Shown here in pieces: positions 5,282-57,671 of a DNA stretch of 64,000 nt. Below the pieces are notes generated by a model that was not told where the DNA came from, did not search any database, and saw only the letters and a program-made list of their open reading frames with translations. This DNA comes from an uncultured Nitrososphaeraceae archaeon. GTDB taxonomy: Archaea > Thermoproteota > Nitrososphaeria > Nitrososphaerales > Nitrososphaeraceae. The stretch is from the NCBI GenBank assembly GCA_963765895.1, contig CAVXZB010000023.1, forward strand, positions 224,001 through 288,000, written 5' to 3'. Both the position numbers and the translations under genes were made by a program. Each line of letters begins with the position of its first letter. Position 1 is the first letter of the stretch.

Positions 5282-6298
5282 TCAATAGTTATTTACACTG
5301 TTATAAGGTAAATCAAATTTTTTGTTTATGCTACCATAGAGATCATATATCCTTCCCCCTGCATAGTCGCTAACATAGTTCCACATGTCCGGGTTTACAG
5401 TCAGGGGTTCAAAGGCCAGTTTTTGTTTATCATCCAATAAATCATATACCATTTGACCTATCACTATTTGATCTGGCTTTGCTAGTCCAGTCATTTTTGT
5501 AGTAATATTGATAGTATAGCCAAGAGCATCGAGATGAGCCTTTTTCATTATAACCTTTCCATTTCTATTATATGTATCCCATCCATACTGGACAACTACA
5601 TTCTCACCAATGTCTATGCCAATTCTAACCTTCAGCTCGGGGTAGTCGTATTGGTTCAAAATGGGGTTTATACCTTCACGATTCACCTTTATCATCGAGC
5701 ATGCACAATTGACAGCATTGAGACAGGGCAAGTATGCGTTTATCTTGTAGCTTTCGTCTTTATCGTAATCAGGGACCACAAAGAAGGCCAAAATGGCATC
5801 ACCTACATATTTTAAAATATATCCCCCATAAGCCTCAATCAACATAGACATTTCTTGGGTAAATGCCTGGATTATCGTTGCTAACCTGTCTATAGGGAGC
5901 ATCATTGATAGCCTAGTTGATTCTACGAGGTCGATATAGAGGATTACAAATGTGACTTTGGATCCTTCGTAGCTTTCTAAAATATTCTGAGTTTCCTCCA
6001 TGGAAATATTAAACTGTGGTTTTACTTTTAGGGCCTGCCAGATTCTAGATTGTGCCTGTTTGATTGCCAAATCTACATTAACTATCGTATCAAGATAAAG
6101 ACCACTCAGCAACGGGGCATCTCTTTGCCTCTTCTTAGAATTCCTTTTGTTTGTCTTGTAGATATTAGTTTCATTAATTATAGCAATAATATCCTCCCGG
6201 TTCAAATCCATCTGCAATGCAATAACGTCTGGCGAAATTCCAGACTTGTACAAGTTAAGTATAGTTTCTCTTTGTTCTAATGATATATATGATATCAC
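5282..6298 (-). CDS. Class III adenylate/guanylate cyclase with N-terminal HTH-like segment
   Basis: YIDLVEST and KYVGDAI metal-binding Asp motifs, RIGIDIG, DALGYTINITTKM; N-terminal LYKSGISPDVIALQMDLNREDI resembles an HTH. Confidence 0.88.
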   Translation of the reverse strand: MISYISLEQRETILNLYKSGISPDVIALQMDLNREDIIAIINETNIYKTNKRNSKKRQRDAPLLSGLYLDTIVNVDLAIKQAQSRIWQALKVKPQFNISMEETQNILESYEGSKVTFVILYIDLVESTRLSMMLPIDRLATIIQAFTQEMSMLIEAYGGYILKYVGDAILAFFVVPDYDKDESYKINAYLPCLNAVNCACSMIKVNREGINPILNQYDYPELKVRIGIDIGENVVVQYGWDTYNRNGKVIMKKAHLDALGYTINITTKMTGLAKPDQIVIGQMVYDLLDDKQKLAFEPLTVNPDMWNYVSDYAGGRIYDLYGSINKKFDLPYNSVNNY

Positions 6299-6994
6299 CT
6301 TATCGCTATAGTTGGATTTATGTCATTCAACATGTTTTACATTAACTAGACGCCTTCATATTATTATTGTGATGAGCCTATAGGCAAATCATTTACTAAC
6401 CAAGCCACAAATCTCAGTCACTATCGGAGCTCTTATGAAGATGGCCTTAATTTTGGCTGATATTTATCAAAACGTTTCGAAGATATATTGTCTAGCTGTT
6501 AGACAAAAACCCAGGGGTTTTTCTCATAGGATATAAATCGATGGGGCCATTTAAATTTGATTCGAAAAGAAGTATGCCATATTAGTATATTTATCATTAG
6601 TGTTATGTCCCAATCCCTTTTTCGGGATTAGATTTGCTTATAAACAGCCAAAGACACTTTCGGGTAGGAAGATATTTTCCTGAATTCAATTGTTATAGCC
6701 TTCGATTTTTTTATTTATAAATGACGATCACTCTCGTGTTAGTATGCATAGAGGATATATGTCCTATCAAGGATTACTATTACATTATACGAAACATTTC
6801 ATTAGCACCTCAGCTATGTCAAGGCTAACGAATTCCTCAAATCCCTAGGGACTTTTTTTATCACAATTCTGTTCCGAAACCCAAGTGAGAACATAATTCA
6901 AAATTATGCTTGACAGGCTGATCTTTTAAGCAAAGGATCTTAACATTTTTTGCTAACATACACAAAGACTCATATCCCAGGCATTTAGAAGGTC

Positions 6995-50884: not shown

Positions 50885-53254
50885 TTATATACTACTCTTT
50901 AGATTATGCATTTTTTGTAAATCCGGAGCAAACGATATAAGAGTAGTTGGTACCGCAATCTGAATCGGATCTTTTAACGACATTGGTTTTCCAGTCTCAG
51001 GTGAAATCGTTTCCTTTTTTTTACTCCACACCATAGAATTAAATTCTAGAATCGATTTGGTATATTTTGTTAGATCTTGGTATCCTGTCTCTGATTTAGG
51101 CATCTTTTGTAAATGAATGCTCTTATTAGAGTACATTTTTGTCCAAATCTCTTCCGTAATAAAAGGACAAATTGGAGAGAGCAGCAAAAGTATTGTATAT
51201 AAGCATTTATTTATAGTAGAGATTGCGGATTCACGACCAAATTTATGTTCCTTTTCATTTTCATAAACACGCCATTTAACCATTTCCAAGTAATGTGAGG
51301 CAAACAAGTTCCATGTAAAGTCTCTTATTGCATTTGCAGGAATAAAAAAATTATAATCGTTATACCCAAGATCACACACTTTAACTAACTTTGACAGCTC
51401 TCCTAAAATCCACTTATCTGAGTCATCGAGATGTTGCGGTAAGTCATAGACTATCTCAAAAGAAGAAACAAATCTTGCTATATTCCACAACTTCGAGAGA
51501 AAATTCTTTGATATTACGATTTTTTGTTCAGAGCATCTAAAATCCTGTCCCAAATTACCTTCCGCAGCAGACCAAAATCGAAACGCATCTGCACCATACC
51601 TGTGAATAATTGGAAATGGGTCTATGACATTTCCCTTGCTCTTACTCATCTTTTCACCTTTCTCATCTACACCATAGCCCATTATCCAAGCCTCAGTCCA
51701 AGGTAATTGATCGGTTAGTTGGAAGCAGCGTAACATACTATAATAAAGCCAAGTTCGTATAATATCCTTAGCTTGTGGTCTCAGCCTTGTCGGATAGAGA
51801 CGGTCAAATGATTTTTGATCTCGTAGATATCTTGTGATAAATAGTGGAGTGATACTAGAGTCCATCCATGTATCAAATATCCTGTCCTCTCCAGTGAACT
51901 CGGTGCTTCCGCATTTACTGCAATTTTTGAATGGAGGCTTTTCCTTCCAAGGTCTATAATATTGACCGGCCTCTGGAAGATTCGGGGCTTTGCAAATTTT
52001 ACAGAACCAGATAGGAATTTCTGTCCCGTAAAATCTTCGTCTTGAAATTGGCCAATCGATCGAAACAGAATCTAGCCAGCTATTCAATATTTGTCGATGT
52101 ATCTCAGGATGGAATTTTATTTTCGATGCGAGTTTTTTCAGTTTTGGGATATAACTCATCTGCTTTAGATAATAATCTTGCATAGATAGTATTTCAATGG
52201 GTGTTCTACTACGTTCACAAATAGGTGTTCGATGCATAATGTTTTCTTCTCGTTCGACACGTTGATCCTTTTTAAGATCCTCAATAATTCTAGATCTGGC
52301 TTGAGATATTCTAAGGTTTGCATATGGTTCGGCTAATTCAGTTGTAGTTCCGAACTCAGTTAACGATACTATTTCTTCAAGCCCTAGTTCTCGAAAAAGC
52401 TGGACATCATTTCGATCACCGTAGCTACAAACCATTACCGCACCAGAGCCAAAGTCGGGTTTTGCTGTCCGGTGAGCAAGAATTTCAACTTCTCTATCGA
52501 ATATAGGTAAGATCACATGCTTGCCTATGAACTCAGTATACCGATCATCTTCAGGGTTCACTATTATTGCTTGACAAGCAAAGAGGAGTTCTGGCCTAGT
52601 GGAAGCTACAATTATAGTTCCTGTCTCTTTGATATCAAATTTCATGTAAACTAGAATGGTGGGAATATCTTGATAGGTGATTTCTGCATCGGCCAGGGTA
52701 GTACCACAATCGTAGCAATAATTATTGGGCCTGTTTGCTATGTATATTAGATCCCTCCTCCATAAATCTATGAAAGTACTCTGAGTTAAAGATCTAAATT
52801 CGGTAGAGTCAGTTCTATAGTCCTCGTCAAAATTTCCACTTAACCCAATATCTTTCATTATTTGAATCATCTCTGATTCAAGATTGTCTAGTGCGTGTCT
52901 ACAAAGATCGAGAAATTTTTCTCTGTCAGTCTTCCGCATTTGAATCTTATATTTTTTTTCAGTATAAATCTCAACAGGTAGGCCATTTCTATCTATGCCT
53001 ATAGGAAAGAATACGCAATAATCCTTCATTCGAGCGGCCTGAGCGATCATATCTATCTGGGCATAGTGGGCCGCTGCTCCGATGTGCCATGGTCTGCCAG
53101 ATGGATATGGCGGTGGAGTATCAATTATGAAAGGTATGCTATTTTGACCGATGATTGAGAAGCCATAGACATTATCTTCGCGCCATTTATCTAGAATTTT
53201 CAGCTCTAGCGAAGGATCCCATGATTTAGATTCAATTTTATGGTTTTCGTTCAT
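50885..53254 (-). CDS. valS: Valine--tRNA ligase
   Basis: DTPPPY...HIGA, DWPISRRR, DTWMDSS, KMSKSKGN. Confidence 0.96.
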   Translation of the reverse strand: MNENHKIESKSWDPSLELKILDKWREDNVYGFSIIGQNSIPFIIDTPPPYPSGRPWHIGAAAHYAQIDMIAQAARMKDYCVFFPIGIDRNGLPVEIYTEKKYKIQMRKTDREKFLDLCRHALDNLESEMIQIMKDIGLSGNFDEDYRTDSTEFRSLTQSTFIDLWRRDLIYIANRPNNYCYDCGTTLADAEITYQDIPTILVYMKFDIKETGTIIVASTRPELLFACQAIIVNPEDDRYTEFIGKHVILPIFDREVEILAHRTAKPDFGSGAVMVCSYGDRNDVQLFRELGLEEIVSLTEFGTTTELAEPYANLRISQARSRIIEDLKKDQRVEREENIMHRTPICERSRTPIEILSMQDYYLKQMSYIPKLKKLASKIKFHPEIHRQILNSWLDSVSIDWPISRRRFYGTEIPIWFCKICKAPNLPEAGQYYRPWKEKPPFKNCSKCGSTEFTGEDRIFDTWMDSSITPLFITRYLRDQKSFDRLYPTRLRPQAKDIIRTWLYYSMLRCFQLTDQLPWTEAWIMGYGVDEKGEKMSKSKGNVIDPFPIIHRYGADAFRFWSAAEGNLGQDFRCSEQKIVISKNFLSKLWNIARFVSSFEIVYDLPQHLDDSDKWILGELSKLVKVCDLGYNDYNFFIPANAIRDFTWNLFASHYLEMVKWRVYENEKEHKFGRESAISTINKCLYTILLLLSPICPFITEEIWTKMYSNKSIHLQKMPKSETGYQDLTKYTKSILEFNSMVWSKKKETISPETGKPMSLKDPIQIAVPTTLISFAPDLQKMHNLKSSI

Positions 53255-53541: not shown

Positions 53542-53699
53542 AACATTTTGATTGATAGCTTCGAAGTATTAAAATGCCTATACTTTAAGTTTGGCTGTAT
53601 TGTTCTCTAGCACGTAAATTATAGTACAGTAATCTAAAAGCACCGAAAATCTCTAATACGTTTGAAAAATGTGGATCAAGAACTCAAATAAAACCTAGG

Positions 53700-55145
53700 C
53701 TAGAAATCTTTTCTAATTGGCAATTCGGGATTTCCGAATTCGTTTGAATACAGTGAATAAAGTCTTATCTCTTGACCATGTTTTATTCGATAATTTCCAA
53801 TCAGTTTTATAGTTTTTTTGTATTCTTCCTTTAAGGAGATAAGTGTTTCCGCCAAATTATCAGCGATTAAGATATGCCACTCGTTACCTATATCCATAAC
53901 TCTACGTGCTAATATAATACCAGGCCCCCAATAATTCTGATTATTTTTTATATCATTCACTGTAAATACTGGTCCCGTACTGAGACCAATACGCACGATT
54001 ATAGAATCTTCATTATTTTTCTCATAATTATACTTACGCAGCTCACGGTGAAGCTCCATGCCCAGTTGTAAGGGCAATTCTGGATTTAATGGAAATCCTA
54101 TCACCATTCCGTCACCAGTAGGTAGTATTATTTTCTTATCGTCTGCCTTAAAAGCCTCACATATAAGTATAAGACTATTGAGAGTCTCTATTTTTTCTCT
54201 CTGTTTATTGACAGATAATAATGGATCAGAAAGGCCGACTATATCTATAAAGAAAAAGTTTGCATTTATTGGTTCAGTCGAAATGCCTATTACTGACAGA
54301 CTAAAGTCATAAACCTTTACTAATTTCTTATAAATTTCTAAATGGTCAGCATGAAAGGGCAGTTCAGTATAAATAACTGGCCTATCAATTATAGGATCCT
54401 TACAAAGGAAACAAAAAGCGTAATTCGATCGTTTGCTAAAGGAAATAGTCCCTTCGTTAGATATATTAAATTCGATCCACAGCGGATCATGATGTATACC
54501 CTTTATAGAGAGCATTCTAACTCTTCTGACCAATGCATCTCCGTTATCCTCTAACTTCATCTCTAATATTCCGTCAAAAATAGAGCTTATGCGATTAGTT
54601 TCGTATTCATTCGAAGATGGAGTACTAAGAGTGAAAATTGCTGACGCATTATATGATTTCAAAATGAAGTAAAGCTTTGTAATAAATGTCTCTACAGTTT
54701 TCTCTCCAAATAACGCCAGTAGATGCGTCAATGAATCACAGATAAATCGAACATTTTTAGCAGGTTTAGTAGACTTAGTATGTGCCAAAGAAGATGAATT
54801 TAGTATCTGATGTTTCTTACTAATTCCAGCCCGCTCAAGCGCTTTAGCGACTTCGTCCAGAGCATAGGATAATTTCATGTCCTCTTCTATATCGTTAATA
54901 TATGGATTGATAAAGATGGAATATTCTGAGACAACGGACTTTTCGAAATTGGAGAAGAGGTCACTATACTGATCCATAGTCAAGTTAGAACTCAGGTAGA
55001 TGCAATATTCATTTTGTGATATACCCTCAAGCAAAAATTGTCTACAGTATATGCTCTTTCCTGCTCCGGATGACCCCGTCAACAACAGGATGCTGTTAGA
55101 GATATTATCCTTGCCTACTAAGTGAGTTATGCCCGGAATTTGCAT
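53700..55145 (-). CDS. KaiC/RAD55-like ATPase fused to class III nucleotidyl cyclase via a Zn-binding linker
   Basis: GSSGAGKS, FICDSL, IFDGILEM; CFLC-x16-HADH; FFFIDIVGLS, TGDG, RIGLSTGPV, WGPGIILARRV, IKHG. Confidence 0.88.
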   Translation of the reverse strand: MQIPGITHLVGKDNISNSILLLTGSSGAGKSIYCRQFLLEGISQNEYCIYLSSNLTMDQYSDLFSNFEKSVVSEYSIFINPYINDIEEDMKLSYALDEVAKALERAGISKKHQILNSSSLAHTKSTKPAKNVRFICDSLTHLLALFGEKTVETFITKLYFILKSYNASAIFTLSTPSSNEYETNRISSIFDGILEMKLEDNGDALVRRVRMLSIKGIHHDPLWIEFNISNEGTISFSKRSNYAFCFLCKDPIIDRPVIYTELPFHADHLEIYKKLVKVYDFSLSVIGISTEPINANFFFIDIVGLSDPLLSVNKQREKIETLNSLILICEAFKADDKKIILPTGDGMVIGFPLNPELPLQLGMELHRELRKYNYEKNNEDSIIVRIGLSTGPVFTVNDIKNNQNYWGPGIILARRVMDIGNEWHILIADNLAETLISLKEEYKKTIKLIGNYRIKHGQEIRLYSLYSNEFGNPELPIRKDF

Positions 55146-55790
55146 CTCATTGTAACAAAATTAGCCAAGCTGTTACTTATATCTTATTAAATGGATTCCA
55201 ATATAGGCGCGTTGCCCAATTTATTAGAAAGCAACAATAAGTAGGTTTCACGACTTAGCAATAACAAAAATGCATGGATAGCGATCTATGTCAAACAAAC
55301 AAAAATTAGAACCCAGGTAGAGAATCGCCTAGTCCAGGTTTTTCCTTTTCCAATTTCGCGATATTTCTTGACATATATTCCATGGTTCCTGGTATATGAC
55401 ACTTGCAAATGCAATCACTACAATCTATATGGCTACCTTTTTTACAATAGTCGGATAGTCCATTATTCACCATAAATTAACAACTCAAATGATAAAGACT
55501 TATTTTAGTCTTGCTAAATTGCATTAATACTAAATATAAAAGTGATCACGATAATAACTACAATATATCGCAGGTTGTCAATCAGATTATAAGTATAAAA
55601 ATATTGATACCCTTATTATATCACAATTCGAATATTTTATTACAAAGGAGTAGCAAAAATTAGCTAGCCGCTGCATGGGAATTAAAGTATCTATTTGCTA
55701 GTTTTCAGCAGGACTTTGCCTGAGCCTCAAATTATAGACTAGATACATTTTTAACTTGATTAAAAAGAATAAATGGATGGTGTTTGAGAC

Positions 55791-56099
55791 TTAGGCAAAA
55801 GAAAAGTACTAACTGAATCGCATCTTAAGGAACTAGTGAAGCCTCAAACTGGTGAATTGCTAGGACGAGTCATAAAGTTAGTGGGTGGAGACAATATTAT
55901 TGTAAAATGTACAGATGGTAGGGTCAGAACGTGTCGTATTAGAGGAAAAATTAAGAGAAGAATGTGGATACGTGATCATGATTTGGTATTAATTGCTCCT
56001 TGGGATTTTCAAGCAGATAAGGCAGATATTATCTGGAGATACATTGCTGCTCACGCAGATAAACTTGAACAAGATGGCTATCTTGATGGATTAAAATAG
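55791..56099 (+). CDS. eif1a: Translation initiation factor 1A (aIF-1A); start codon unresolved
   Basis: CTDGRVRTCRIRGKIKRRMWIR, APWDFQ, ADIIWRY; the basic N-terminus GKRKVL is in frame upstream of the tracked GTG. Confidence 0.95.
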   Translation, partial: LGKRKVLTESHLKELVKPQTGELLGRVIKLVGGDNIIVKCTDGRVRTCRIRGKIKRRMWIRDHDLVLIAPWDFQADKADIIWRYIAAHADKLEQDGYLDGLK

Positions 56100-56476: not shown

Positions 56477-56650
56477 TCATAGATCGTCAATGGGATATTT
56501 AGATAAACATGCGGAACATTCATAGATTTCTTTCCCAACAGGTCCTGACACGTTGAACTTTACAACAGTAGTACATTTAGGACATCTGCCCTGCACACTA
56601 CGGCTCTTTGTCTGCGGCCTAATAAGTTTCCGTCTTCTTCTGCCTCCCAT
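56477..56650 (-). CDS. 57-aa basic zinc-ribbon protein (not in ORF track)
   Basis: Manual translation MGGRRRRKLIRPQTKSRSVQGRCPKCTTVVKFNVSGPVGKEIYECSACLSKYPIDDL*. Confidence 0.82.
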   Translation of the reverse strand: MGGRRRRKLIRPQTKSRSVQGRCPKCTTVVKFNVSGPVGKEIYECSACLSKYPIDDL

Positions 56651-57029: not shown

Positions 57030-57671
57030 CTACCTAGACACGAGTTTAATCTTGTCGAGGTAACTTGGAAGGTCATTAACAAAAGACATGAAGTTACTGA
57101 TAGGTACGACTGGTATTTCTTCAACCAGTTTTATAGCCATGGGATAAAGAGTAAGTAGTACTGGAATAGATGAAGACACAGTTTTTCTATTTGACATAAA
57201 TACGTATGCCCTGTGAATTTGCTTTATAGCATAAGATGAAGTAGATTTTAAATCATTTCGTTGCCAATGCTTGCAATCAATTAATATGGCTAGTTTAGAG
57301 TAATTGTTGGTTCCAACAACATCAATCTCTATTCTACGAGGTTTATTAAACCGTACATTACACTCAGTTTTATATCCTGACAAGTTAAGAATTTCTGAAG
57401 TGAGCACCTCAAAATCTCTCCAGGTTAGAATTTTAGATATCAACTCAACATCATTCCCATTTTTTAATGCAAGAATTGCAAGTTTGATTCGATCTGAATT
57501 AGAGAACATATAGATATTTTGGGATGTACGACCGACTCCGTTATCCAATAAATATTGCATAACTTGTTTAGAGACTGACCGACTTATAATGTCCAACCTG
57601 CTTTGAAATTCATTTAGAGTTAATTCTGGCATTATTGCACGCATAGCTTTCACTAATAGTAAAGGATCCAT
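57030..57671 (-). CDS. PD-(D/E)xK restriction endonuclease-like (Mrr-cat-like) protein
   Basis: WRDFE, EIDVVG, LIDCKHW, Q motifs. Confidence 0.8.
   Translation of the reverse strand: MDPLLLVKAMRAIMPELTLNEFQSRLDIISRSVSKQVMQYLLDNGVGRTSQNIYMFSNSDRIKLAILALKNGNDVELISKILTWRDFEVLTSEILNLSGYKTECNVRFNKPRRIEIDVVGTNNYSKLAILIDCKHWQRNDLKSTSSYAIKQIHRAYVFMSNRKTVSSSIPVLLTLYPMAIKLVEEIPVVPISNFMSFVNDLPSYLDKIKLVSR

Follow-up and report, generated by a model that had tools for sequence, protein, structure and literature searches.

Does a gene that joins a KaiC-like ATPase domain, a zinc knuckle and a class III cyclase homology domain (CHD) encode a working nucleotidyl cyclase and, if so, what would the ATPase part do for it? 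The question arises in a 64,000-nucleotide stretch of DNA from an uncultured Nitrososphaeraceae archaeon (the whole of the stretch analysed, hereafter the window), for which an earlier note had proposed a nucleotide-sensing second-messenger system encoded by one such fused gene. The archaeal CYTH proteins that carry the annotation "adenylate cyclase" differ in function from class IV cyclases, and a tested member turned out to be a triphosphatase (2023 review, PMC10249747); a term search of the main text of that review turned up neither Thaumarchaeota nor Nitroso- taxa nor KaiC. Literature searches beyond the 2017 KaiC-hub publication and its supplementary files found no paper on a KaiC–cyclase fusion, and the architecture is a variant of known domain kinds without a characterised member. 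Automated pipelines already label it [quoted passage not shown] In 2017, Makarova et al. reportedly proposed KaiC-like ATPases as signalling hubs of archaea.

As a candidate for the missing archaeal cyclic-nucleotide enzyme, the gene is concrete, conserved and, it appears, expressed, and its hosts, the ammonia-oxidising archaea, are environmentally important and partly cultivable. KaiC-like "hub" ATPases, MinD/ParA-like ATPases and cyclic nucleotides, three little-understood elements of regulation in archaea, meet in this gene, which also offers a natural test of class III substrate choice without the textbook Lys/Glu. Our preferred reading, held with moderate confidence and drawn from motifs, structural models and analogy, is that it may encode an active nucleotidyl cyclase under the control of a KaiC-like oligomerisation domain that binds ATP and hydrolyses it poorly.

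One gene with three modules

The open reading frame starts with ATG and has zero internal stops (Table 1). Its product consists of three modules: a P-loop domain with an intact site and without the Glu pair, a four-ligand zinc knuckle, and a CHD that keeps its metal-binding Asp and its Arg residues. Both domain calls of the earlier note, KaiC-like ATPase and cyclase, held up, as each passed its Pfam cut-off and the AlphaFold models agree. Every motif that it had quoted was found in the translation (GSSGAGKS at residues 24–31, CIYLSSNL 48–55, FICDS 134–138, RMLSIKG 210–216, FIDIV 299–303, LPTGD 341–345, TGDG 343–346 and GIILARR 409–415), and the linker between the two domains, written there as C-x2-C-x16-H-x2-H, is exact (CFLC 245–248, HADH 265–268).

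Table 1. Features of the fused gene, with positions in the window and the evidence for each
Feature	Position	Strand	Evidence
Whole gene, 481 aa: KaiC-like domain, Zn knuckle and class III CHD	53700..55145	-	ORF
Single KaiC/ArlH-like RecA-fold P-loop domain, residues 1–237	54435..55145	-	PF06745, Foldseek
Walker A GSSGAGKS, residues 24–31	55053..55076	-	Conserved in relatives
N54-L55, at KaiC catalytic Glu-Glu	54981..54986	-	HMMER alignment to KaiC CII
Walker B strand RFICDS, residues 133–138	54732..54749	-	Conserved in relatives
S213-I-K215-G, equivalent to KaiC K-M-R-G trans-acting finger	54498..54509	-	HMMER alignment
Zn knuckle plus helix, C245-x2-C248-x16-H265-x2-H268, treble-clef-like	54342..54413	-	Conserved ligands
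Class III CHD, residues 290–478, divergent subfamily	53712..54278	-	PF00211, PDB profile, Foldseek
D301, first metal-binding Asp	54243..54245	-	D in 116/116 aligned rows; 4 of 120 gapped
L341, at purine-specifying Lys (AC)/Glu (GC) position	54123..54125	-	Aligned to Ma1120 K101
D345, second metal-binding Asp, TGDG motif	54111..54113	-	G344, D345, G346 each 120/120
N404, second specificity position (Asp in ACs)	53934..53936	-	Aligned to Ma1120 D157
I411, at transition-state Asn position	53913..53915	-	Ma1120 Ala164 position
R415, transition-state Arg	53901..53903	-	R in 117/120; aligned to Ma1120 R168

The fusion recurs well beyond this copy. Full-length homologues of the 481-aa protein share 39–96% identity with it. 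Of the 7999 candidates that were scored, 1428 were homologues with E<=1e-3, and the representative library contained 3206, numbers far beyond chance. The same KaiC, Zn knuckle and CHD arrangement was present at 33 of 37 independent genome loci, a count made up of 32 loci in which the KaiC part and the CHD both matched, plus L059, a full-length 509-aa ORF whose KaiC part was missed by the query. Within the family, the fused gene was found in 11/14 other genomes, though genomes that share ancestry do not count as independent samples.

Could neighbouring KaiC-like and cyclase genes have been read as one through an error of assembly or annotation? We give such an artefact practically no chance, and nothing was found in its favour. 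The frame is uninterrupted, the fused ORF recurs across many independent assemblies, and single contigs, from one DNA run and from a pair of RNA-library runs, cross the domain junction. Specifically, a DNA contig (X1, record 1) covers 53596–55159 with 0 gaps, and RNA-library contigs from two different studies span 53880–55462 (X15) and 54072–55464 (X16); in the junction-spanning contigs every indel falls outside the ORF. The independent loci and the junction-spanning contigs thus refute the artefact, and what the earlier note had taken for one gene rather than two is one, with the same ORF in independent assemblies and in DNA- and RNA-library contigs. The fusion gene is genuine and conserved in soil ammonia-oxidising archaea. 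The RNA-library contigs over it are no more than a hint of transcription, as such libraries can contain DNA.

The P-loop domain and the zinc knuckle

The N-terminal module is a KaiC-family domain by profile and by predicted fold. PF06745 matches residues 3–235 (E 5.6e-19; 68.9 bits against a cut-off of 26.6), and in the full-length AF2 model the 10-residue blocks of this domain mostly have pLDDT 81–95, except at the loop 113–126. A Foldseek search with that model ranked FlaH first (4yds, E 2.7e-12), with PH0186 (2zts, TMt 0.80) and KaiC also matched; FlaH, KaiC, PH0186 and SSO2452 all fell at E ~1e-11. At the level of equivalogs, the NCBIfam models for KaiC (58.4 bits, cut-off 408) and ArlH (41.6 bits, cut-off 215) were not matched, and the protein has one domain of ~237 aa, not the tandem CI + CII of KaiC.

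Like cyanobacterial KaiC, then, the domain belongs to PF06745, carries Walker A and Walker B motifs and aligns to the CII half. Unlike KaiC, which has two tandem domains, the catalytic Glu pair after strand 2 and the K-x-R finger, it is a single domain in which the Glu positions read Asn-Leu and the finger reads Ser-x-Lys. These features are shared across 138 relatives, for which the seven commonest residues per column were listed. On the nucleotide-binding side, G24 and K30 occur in 138/138, Ser or Thr at position 31 in 136/138, and D137 and S138 each in 137/138. On the hydrolytic side, no Glu is among the residues listed at positions 52–55, and a single Glu occurs at position 56. The finger positions are S at 213 in 133 relatives, and K (89) or R (42) at 215.

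The non-canonical residues that the earlier note had read by eye, in the ATPase as in the cyclase, are real: the alignments show no canonical ones, and the substitutions extend across the family instead of setting this copy apart. Canonical residues in the alignments, and split genes in the independent assemblies and contigs, were two of the outcomes named there as counting against the proposal, and neither was found. Its description of the KxR finger as replaced was right in part: the Lys position is lost (S213), and the Arg position still carries a basic residue (K215).

The top structural match, ArlH/FlaH (4yds), is likewise a single RecA-like domain. It differs in having no C-terminal output domain, and no archaellum genes lie near the gene studied here. 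As described in passages of PMC8978795, ArlH binds ATP without hydrolysing it, autophosphorylates, and switches between hexameric and dissociated forms. By analogy, the KaiC-like domain would bind ATP and hydrolyse it poorly or not at all. Ring formation, weak hydrolysis and gating of the cyclase are all putative; in such a switch, the oligomeric or (auto)phosphorylation state might join or separate the CHDs, so that cyclase output would report the state of the P-loop domain.

Between the two domains lies the knuckle, whose first two ligands are nearly invariant (C245 in 138/138 and C248 in 137/138 relatives) and whose second pair co-varies, reading HxxH in 72, DxxxC in 64 and otherwise in 2. 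The AF2 model places a beta-hairpin at 257–264 and then a helix at 269–279. In Pfam, the gene's own Zn linker had no match, and the linkers of relatives gave hits that were all below cut-off (DUF2116 "probable treble clef," E 0.013; Arc_trans_TRASH, E 0.11–0.2). The ligand pattern, the HxxH/DxxxC co-variation and the predicted hairpin plus helix fit a treble-clef fold, with profile matches that are sub-threshold.

Catalysis and substrate choice in the cyclase domain

Pfam recognises the cyclase domain marginally: PF00211 (Guanylate_cyc) matches residues 359–465 (E 9e-6; 25.8 bits against a cut-off of 21.9), and the match covers profile positions 79–181 of 183 only, i.e., the C-terminal half. 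A CHD profile compared with the PDB found Ma1120 at E 8.7e-16. As the Foldseek search with the full-length model gave only KaiC-family matches in the listed ranks, the CHD was folded separately. Alone, it was modelled by AF2 with pLDDT 96.1 and pTM 0.91, and the model matched Rv1900c (1ybt, E 8e-11, TMt 0.81) as well as CyaC, sGC and Ma1120. The full-length AF2 model has a pTM of 0.52 and disordered linkers at 113–126 and 280–289, and therefore gives no inter-domain geometry; a complex prediction for two CHD copies returned a score of 0.02, a "no answer" that is evidence neither way.

Among solved structures, the best sequence match is to Ma1120 of Mycobacterium avium (4wp8/4wp9), a minimal class III adenylyl cyclase. 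Like Ma1120 (Foldseek E 1.1e-9, TMt 0.78–0.82), the present CHD has both metal-binding Asp residues and the Arg, and is without the canonical Asn. The two differ at the adenine-specifying Lys101 and Asp157 of Ma1120, which are Leu341 and Asn404 here, and Ma1120 has neither a KaiC-like domain nor a Zn knuckle. The CHD of Rv1900c, CyaC of Spirulina, and soluble and membrane guanylyl/adenylyl cyclases have the same fold (1ybt; 1wc1, TMq 0.72; 3et6; 1azs), but at 14–21% identity and with other regulatory domains and specificity residues.

In 120 CHD relatives, conservation extends beyond the metal-binding Asp residues and the transition-state Arg to R385 (117/120) and K455 (112/120). The CHD is also the best-conserved part of the protein, with 56–69% identity in loci L036–L062 vs. 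29–43% for the KaiC domain. The conserved catalytic residues and the high conservation of the CHD together argue for selection on the active site. The subfamily further has residues of its own: Q315 and T343 (each 113/120), and H424 and H456 (100–107/120).

It is at the positions of base recognition and transition-state stabilisation that the subfamily departs from the textbook, in which ATP is specified by a Lys/Asp pair and GTP by Glu together with Cys, Ser, Thr or Gly. Position 341 is L in 83, I in 12, N in 8, Q in 3, S in 3, V in 2, T in 2 and R in 2 of the 120 relatives, with neither Lys nor Glu among the residues listed; position 404 is N in 100, D in 9 and T in 4; and position 411 is I in 80, N in 24 and V in 12. 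Since 24/120 relatives keep the canonical Asn, the subfamily descends from ordinary cyclases. In a quick tree, all 24 non-redundant KaiC-fused CHDs and the three Zn-only CHDs formed one branch (SH-aLRT 99), and as this tree is midpoint-rooted it does not tell gain of the KaiC domain from its loss.

Heterodimeric cyclases have a non-catalytic site, and this CHD might likewise be a pseudo-cyclase, i.e., a nucleotide-binding or dimerisation module, the whole protein being a scaffold or adaptor of KaiC type and a partner of the MinD-like ATPase. We consider this unlikely. The non-canonical Lys/Glu and Asn positions and the marginal Pfam score would suit it, as would the paralogues: Lys, Asp and Asn are retained in most other CHDs of this genome, one canonical paralogue being encoded at 5285..6322 of the window, and the present CHD may thus have moved away from cyclase function. 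Its best-conserved module would then, however, be a dead active site, which would be unusual, and one in which the metal Asp, Arg, R385 and K455 are kept in 112–120 of 120 relatives. Mutagenesis of mammalian cyclases has marked the Lys/Glu and Asn positions as essential, going by the title of reference 33 in PMC4215837. Yet Ma1120, as described in passages of the same paper, is an active adenylyl cyclase with Ala164 at the Asn position, and the A164N change lowers its activity. The missing Asn is therefore weak evidence of anything, a correction to the earlier note, which had pointed it out.

If the CHD is active, as we prefer to think, it would convert an NTP into a 3',5'-cyclic NMP and pyrophosphate by the usual two-metal mechanism, probably as a head-to-tail dimer with the active sites at its interface. 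Its base preference is not readable from sequence; ATP or a relaxed purine preference seems to us the likeliest, followed by a pyrimidine or other product.

Among known systems, Rv0386 is a mycobacterial CHD–ATPase multidomain cyclase that has Gln/Asn instead of Lys/Asp and accepts both ATP and GTP. Cyclases of this type, too, are joined to a P-loop NTPase, in their case a STAND/NB-ARC ATPase C-terminal to the CHD, whereas here the KaiC-like domain is N-terminal to the CHD and the Zn knuckle stands between them.

A further possibility is an active enzyme whose product is neither a purine cyclic nucleotide nor, perhaps, a cyclic nucleotide at all (cCMP/cUMP as in Pycsar, or another signal), the Leu/Asn/Ile/Thr343 pocket being a new specificity class. 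To this we assign a fairly low probability. No purine-specifying residue is among those listed at position 341, and the subfamily's own invariant residues would have a ready role, but in sequence and in fold alike the nearest solved structures are adenylyl/guanylyl cyclases, and Rv0386 uses ATP and GTP even with Gln/Asn. Specificity in pyrimidine cyclases is set by the residue two before the first Asp and by those four and two before the second (F100, R142 and Q144 in EaPycC), according to passages of PMC11224242, and F299, L341 and T343 differ at these same positions. Like Pycsar PycC, as described in those passages, the present domain thus has a class III-type fold in which the base-recognition residues near the two metal Asp are altered. 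In contrast to that system, its residues are not those given for EaPycC or BcPycC, the PADLOC PycC model had no match to the protein at E<=0.1, and its genomic context is a housekeeping one.

Genomic neighbourhood and partner ATPase

The gene lies between genes for aIF-1A, a class I aminoacyl-tRNA synthetase and HemD, a synteny that is conserved in the six closest loci. This context, and the near-universal and apparently vertical inheritance of the gene in the family, speak against a role in antiviral defence, in which the protein would be a cyclase-based abortive-infection or sensor module rather than part of housekeeping signalling. Such a role would be in keeping with a weak match of the KaiC part to PADLOC mad8 (E 9.6e-6), with CHD relatives that are fused to CHAT-NB-ARC-TPR and nSTAND modules, and with an Mrr-like nuclease gene 1.9 kb away. 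However, the aIF-1A gene separates that nuclease gene from the fusion, and no TIR, TM or nuclease effector was seen adjacent to it. We regard defence as very improbable. Beside the gene, no cNMP-binding gene or phosphodiesterase was seen.

The strongest context clue, absent from the earlier note, is a conserved MinD/ParA-like neighbour. Outside the window's own clade, a Pfam-supported gene for a MinD/ParA-like ATPase is directly adjacent in 28 of 31 loci; at L036 and L063, for example, the two genes adjoin. In the six closest loci the MinD-like gene is not within 6 kb, and in the source genome it lies on another contig, adjoining a receiver-domain gene. In a sample of 201 genomes, the MinD clade was present in 14/14 other genomes of the family and in 2/114 genomes of the sister family; these two are exactly the sister-family genomes with Zn-knuckle+CHD, and the genes are adjacent in them. 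Next to this same MinD, some Nitrosopumilaceae encode a Zn-finger+CHD protein that lacks the KaiC part. In three genomes of the family the MinD clade is present but this query gave no full-length match.

The Zn knuckle and CHD may be the ancestral functional unit, working with the MinD/ParA-like ATPase. In our preferred reading of an active, KaiC-regulated cyclase, the protein would be a cytoplasmic signalling enzyme of Nitrososphaeraceae whose product might be read by cNMP-binding-domain proteins of the same genome, in which we found 16 CHD matches and at least eight PF00027 cNMP-binding matches over the cut-off. A bolder extension, to which we would lend rather little credence, is that the Zn-knuckle–CHD clade of ammonia-oxidising archaea is a new class III specificity class, with a messenger other than cAMP/cGMP or promiscuous NTP use, and that its output is under the joint control of two P-loop switches, the fused KaiC-like domain, deficient in hydrolysis, and the MinD/ParA-like ATPase encoded next to it. 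If true, this would amount to an archaeon-specific second-messenger circuit that ties KaiC "hub" signalling to cyclic nucleotides in soil nitrifiers.

A PLD/TrmB-like protein of ~350 aa, often encoded upstream of the MinD gene, was also considered as a specific third partner; it was set aside because its 30 matches in the genome mark a large paralogue family.

A conserved three-part gene

The KaiC-Zn-CHD gene is conserved and is a testable candidate for making cyclic nucleotides in archaea; it is built of parts that are of known kinds: a KaiC-like ATPase, a treble-clef-like zinc knuckle and a class III cyclase homology domain (CHD). In Pfam, PF06745 (KaiC) matches residues 3-235 (E 5.6e-19; 68.9 bits vs. 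a cut-off of 26.6) and PF00211 (Guanylate_cyc) matches residues 359-465 with the second half of the profile only (E 9e-6; 25.8 bits vs. 21.9); the NCBIfam models for KaiC and for ArlH, the single-domain archaellum regulator also called FlaH, match below threshold only. The start codon is backed by relatives opening with the identical MQIPG and, with coordinates re-derived, every motif quoted in the earlier note was found in the ORF at the position claimed for it.

The fusion is genuine as well as conserved. Of 7999 proteins scored in a word-indexed search, 1428 are homologues at E<=1e-3; the best 120 are nearly all full-length (478-550 aa), and many of them bear the JGI label [quoted passage not shown] A one-genome-per-species scan gave 37 loci, all in Nitrososphaerota MAGs and mostly in Nitrososphaeraceae, with KaiC part and CHD together in 32; the query used there missed the KaiC part of a full-length 509-aa ORF (locus L059). 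Among 201 sampled genomes of the class, the gene is matched in 13 of the 14 other genomes of the window’s family, with a full-length-sized open frame in 11 of the 13 and the whole query matched in 9; in two genomes (G200 and G170) the match begins only at residue 111-128, the frames being 471 and 538 aa. From public sequencing runs, DNA contig X1 spans 53596-55159 with zero gaps, and metatranscriptome contigs X15 (53880-55462) and X16 (54072-55464), from different studies, both run across the junction of the KaiC, Zn and CHD parts; the indels reported for the three contigs all lie outside the ORF. As DNA can be present in RNA libraries, X15 and X16 are only a hint of transcription. The earlier note had allowed for two separate genes; the loci of many genomes and the junction-spanning contigs show one ORF instead and, with its lack of interruption, refute an assembly or annotation artefact.

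The fusion is not categorically new, the KaiC-cyclase combination having already been named by automated annotation (JGI). No paper describing it was found in the literature searched, although the 2017 KaiC-hub paper and its supplements lie outside that search and may mention it. Class III cyclases are listed, without analysis, among Nitrososphaeraceae-specific gene clusters (PMC13577086), and a 2023 review, which leaves the Nitrososphaeraceae lineage unmentioned, holds that annotated archaeal CYTH-type cyclases are not cyclases.

Nucleotide site and zinc knuckle

The full-length AlphaFold model (138-row alignment; pLDDT 85.8, pTM 0.52; low confidence solely at 113-126 and 280-289) contains a RecA-like domain whose best PDB match is FlaH/ArlH (4yds, E 2.7e-12), followed by archaeal KaiC-like PH0186 (TMt 0.80), SSO2452 and PH0284, and by KaiC itself. 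As the earlier note held, Walker A and B are retained, being nearly invariant in 138 relatives (G24 and K30 138/138, S/T at 31 in 136/138; D137 and S138 each 137/138), and the catalytic glutamates of KaiC are replaced: HMMER alignments place N54-L55 at the CII Glu pair, and Glu is absent from the residues listed at these columns for the 138 relatives (S/S/(S,N,L)/L). The supposed replacement of the KxR finger stands in part, since alignment of KaiC K-M-R-G with S213-I-K215-G puts Ser at the Lys position (133/138) but leaves the Arg position in practice always basic (K 89, R 42); R207 never varies and R210 hardly does. Because Walker A and B are fixed, the general-base Glu is absent and K-x-R is altered, the domain looks, from its sequence, competent to bind nucleotide and not built to hydrolyze it by the KaiC mechanism. 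This look matches ArlH, which PMC8978795 reports to bind ATP without hydrolyzing it, to autophosphorylate and to alternate between hexameric and dissociated states. Identity with either protein was rejected: a bona fide KaiC by the single domain and 58.4 bits vs. a 408-bit cut-off, and ArlH by 41.6 bits vs. a cut-off of 215 and the lack of archaellum genes nearby.

In the linker, all 138 relatives have C245 and 137 have C248, and the second ligand pair takes two co-varying forms, F-H-x2-H (72/138, window protein included) and F-D-x3-C (64/138; other, 2/138), as one would expect where a metal is bound by four ligands. In the predicted structure, residues 257-264 form a beta-hairpin and 269-279 a helix, which together with the knuckle make a treble-clef-like arrangement. 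Pfam has no match in the window protein’s own linker and only sub-threshold ones in those of relatives (DUF2116 “probable treble clef,” E 0.013; archaeal TRASH, E 0.11-0.2), and a treble-clef or TRASH label is only a lead.

A divergent cyclase domain

Folded alone, the CHD (residues 285-481; 120-row alignment) is modelled confidently (pLDDT 96.1, pTM 0.91), and each of its neighbours in the PDB is a class III cyclase: Rv1900c (E 8e-11, TMt 0.81), CyaC, soluble guanylyl cyclase, mammalian C2 and Ma1120, the minimal adenylyl cyclase of Mycobacterium avium, which a profile of 20 domain sequences also found (E 8.7e-16). Read through that profile alignment with the residue numbering of PMC4215837, L341 is equivalent to Lys101, N404 to Asp157, I411 to Ala164 (the Asn position) and R415 to Arg168. 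Metal and phosphate ligands are intact: both metal Asp residues noticed earlier are present (D301 in 116/116 aligned rows of 120 CHD relatives; D345, within G344-D345-G346, 120/120), as are R415 and R385 (each 117/120) and K455 (112/120). At the Lys position (341) the relatives have L 83, I 12 and N 8, Lys never being among the listed residues; position 404, the second for specificity, is N 100, D 9, T 4, and the Asn position (411) is I 80, N 24, V 12. Given these family-wide counts, the earlier note was right that the usual adenine-specifying Lys and catalytic Asn are not evident, and L341 and I411 belong to a pattern that, on present alignments, defines a subfamily. Among the 16 PF00211 matches of the window’s own genome, only the KaiC-fused copy aligns with Leu/Asn/Ile at these positions; the others mostly have the canonical Lys at -4 of G-D, Asp, and Asn-x3-Arg/Lys.

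That the CHD is an active two-metal nucleotidyl cyclase, a new product included, we infer to be reasonably probable; the competing and less probable view, a pseudo-cyclase scaffold, is favoured by the altered Lys and Asn positions and opposed by the intact ligands. The altered positions also invite the rival of a new product specificity, yet exotic chemistry is tempered by the Asn kept in a fifth of relatives and by Ma1120, an adenylyl cyclase that is active although Ala occupies its Asn position and that is less active as the A164N mutant (PMC4215837). A defence module is a further, improbable rival. In PycC, the Pycsar pyrimidine cyclase, the positions altered here are identical to those that set pyrimidine specificity (EaPycC F100, R142 and Q144 around D102 and D146; PMC11224242), whereas the window protein has different residues (F299, L341, T343) and is not matched by the PADLOC PycC model. 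The CHD’s product is therefore not predictable. In our preferred reading, an active cyclase, activity would depend on dimerization, and the KaiC-like domain may control it, by analogy with ArlH, through its ATP-bound or oligomeric (possibly autophosphorylated) state.

The genome also has nine cNMP-binding-domain matches, at least eight above the Pfam cut-off, so putative readers for a cyclic nucleotide exist; with the 16 PF00211 matches they make a sizeable toolkit for an archaeon. A second CHD gene in the window has canonical Lys, Asp and Asn. The assembly (4.9 Mb, 88 contigs, completeness 88%, contamination 2.4%) is either unusually large for its group (14 other family genomes sampled, 1.7-3.9 Mb) or a mixed bin.

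An exhaustive HMMER search found 3206 matches at E<=1e-3 among 1.84 billion representatives, and the CHD subfamily also occurs stand-alone and in other architectures. Partners elsewhere include SAM methyltransferase, cupredoxin, Clp_N-FHA-Ser/Thr kinase, CHAT-NB-ARC-TPR and nSTAND2 (P0170, P0199, P0210, P0212, P0225), a variety which suggests that the divergent CHD serves as a portable module, for output or for input. In the sister family 41/114 genomes match (the unpublished G132 included), all but two from about residue 255 onward, without the KaiC part; common there is a form of ~400 aa (e.g., P0147, P0149, P0151) with an N-terminal CHD, the C-terminal half (~200 aa) being conserved and without a Pfam match. 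Nine further families of the class were sampled, and among them only f5 matched (2/2 genomes). All 24 KaiC-fused CHDs, three Zn-knuckle-only ones and one fragment fall on a single branch (SH-aLRT 99) of a quick tree built from 126 non-redundant domains, whose midpoint root leaves the direction of KaiC change (gain or loss) unreadable.

The MinD/ParA-like neighbour

HemD and Mrr-like genes lie beyond the immediate flanking genes, in an order common to the six closest loci (82-96% identity).

Coordinates of the gene, its neighbours and related genes
Feature	Location	Strand	Remark
KaiC-Zn-CHD ORF	53700..55145	-	481 codons, uninterrupted
aIF-1A gene	55836..56099		divergent; flanks ORF
Class I aminoacyl-tRNA synthetase	50885..53254		flanks ORF, other side
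Zinc-ribbon-like ORF	56477..56650	-	57 aa
Mrr_cat-like gene	57030..57671	-	213 aa
Second CHD gene	5285..6322	-	PF00211 match 5420..5947
MinD-like	L063 5132..5974	+
MinD-like	L013 5959..6846	-
MinD-like, own genome	G000:C19:394795-395916 (L029 6799..7947)	+	382 aa, incl. ~90-aa insertion
Zn-knuckle+CHD	L063 5992..6738	+	immediately downstream of MinD-like gene
Zn-knuckle+CHD	L064 3202..3948	+	same
Zn-knuckle+CHD	L065 3668..4432	+	same
CHD, ~400-aa form	L065 5260..6459	-
PLD/TrmB-like	L063 3555..4610	+	~350 aa
PLD/TrmB-like, own genome	G000:C38:27473-28381

Between the aIF-1A and Mrr-like genes, the 57-aa ORF has two CxxC pairs and is rich in Arg and Lys at its N-terminus; the Mrr_cat-like protein (restriction-endonuclease fold, E 2.8e-5) keeps its position in the six closest loci.

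Outside the window’s clade, a MinD/ParA-like ATPase directly adjoins the gene in 28 of 31 loci (L036-L066), placed downstream, divergently, or upstream with the strand shared. Two of the three exceptions leave no space for it there (one lies on a contig of 2.4 kb, and in the other the contig end cuts the gene). The Walker A of this neighbour (~280-300 aa; Pfam AAA_31, ParA, CbiA) is of the deviant type (KGGTGKT), and a pair of Cys is conserved at its C-terminus (“PCYCD”). In four Nitrosopumilaceae/Nitrosotalea MAG loci its partner is a Zn-knuckle+CHD protein without KaiC (complete ORFs, 248-254 aa), 18-29 bp downstream of the MinD gene in two of the loci, with a PLD/TrmB-like protein in front; the fetched flanks of L063, L064 and L065 hold no KaiC-like match near these genes. 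At E<=1e-30 the MinD clade is present in 14/14 other family genomes and in 2/114 of the sister family, exactly the two with Zn-knuckle+CHD, where the genes are adjacent. This phyletic pattern agrees with a link between MinD and the (KaiC-)Zn-knuckle-CHD unit, the related genomes being non-independent and carrying no statistical claim. Two observations speak against strict pairing: in three family genomes the MinD clade is present without a full-length match to the KaiC-Zn-CHD query, and the own-genome MinD-like gene is unlinked, on another contig beside a receiver-domain gene. The MinD/ParA-like ATPase may be an additional partner that acts on the unit of Zn-knuckle and CHD.

A PLD-like/TrmB-C-terminal-like protein often precedes the MinD gene; its paralogue family is strongly expanded, with 30 matches in the window’s own genome, many in open frames of 500-860 aa.
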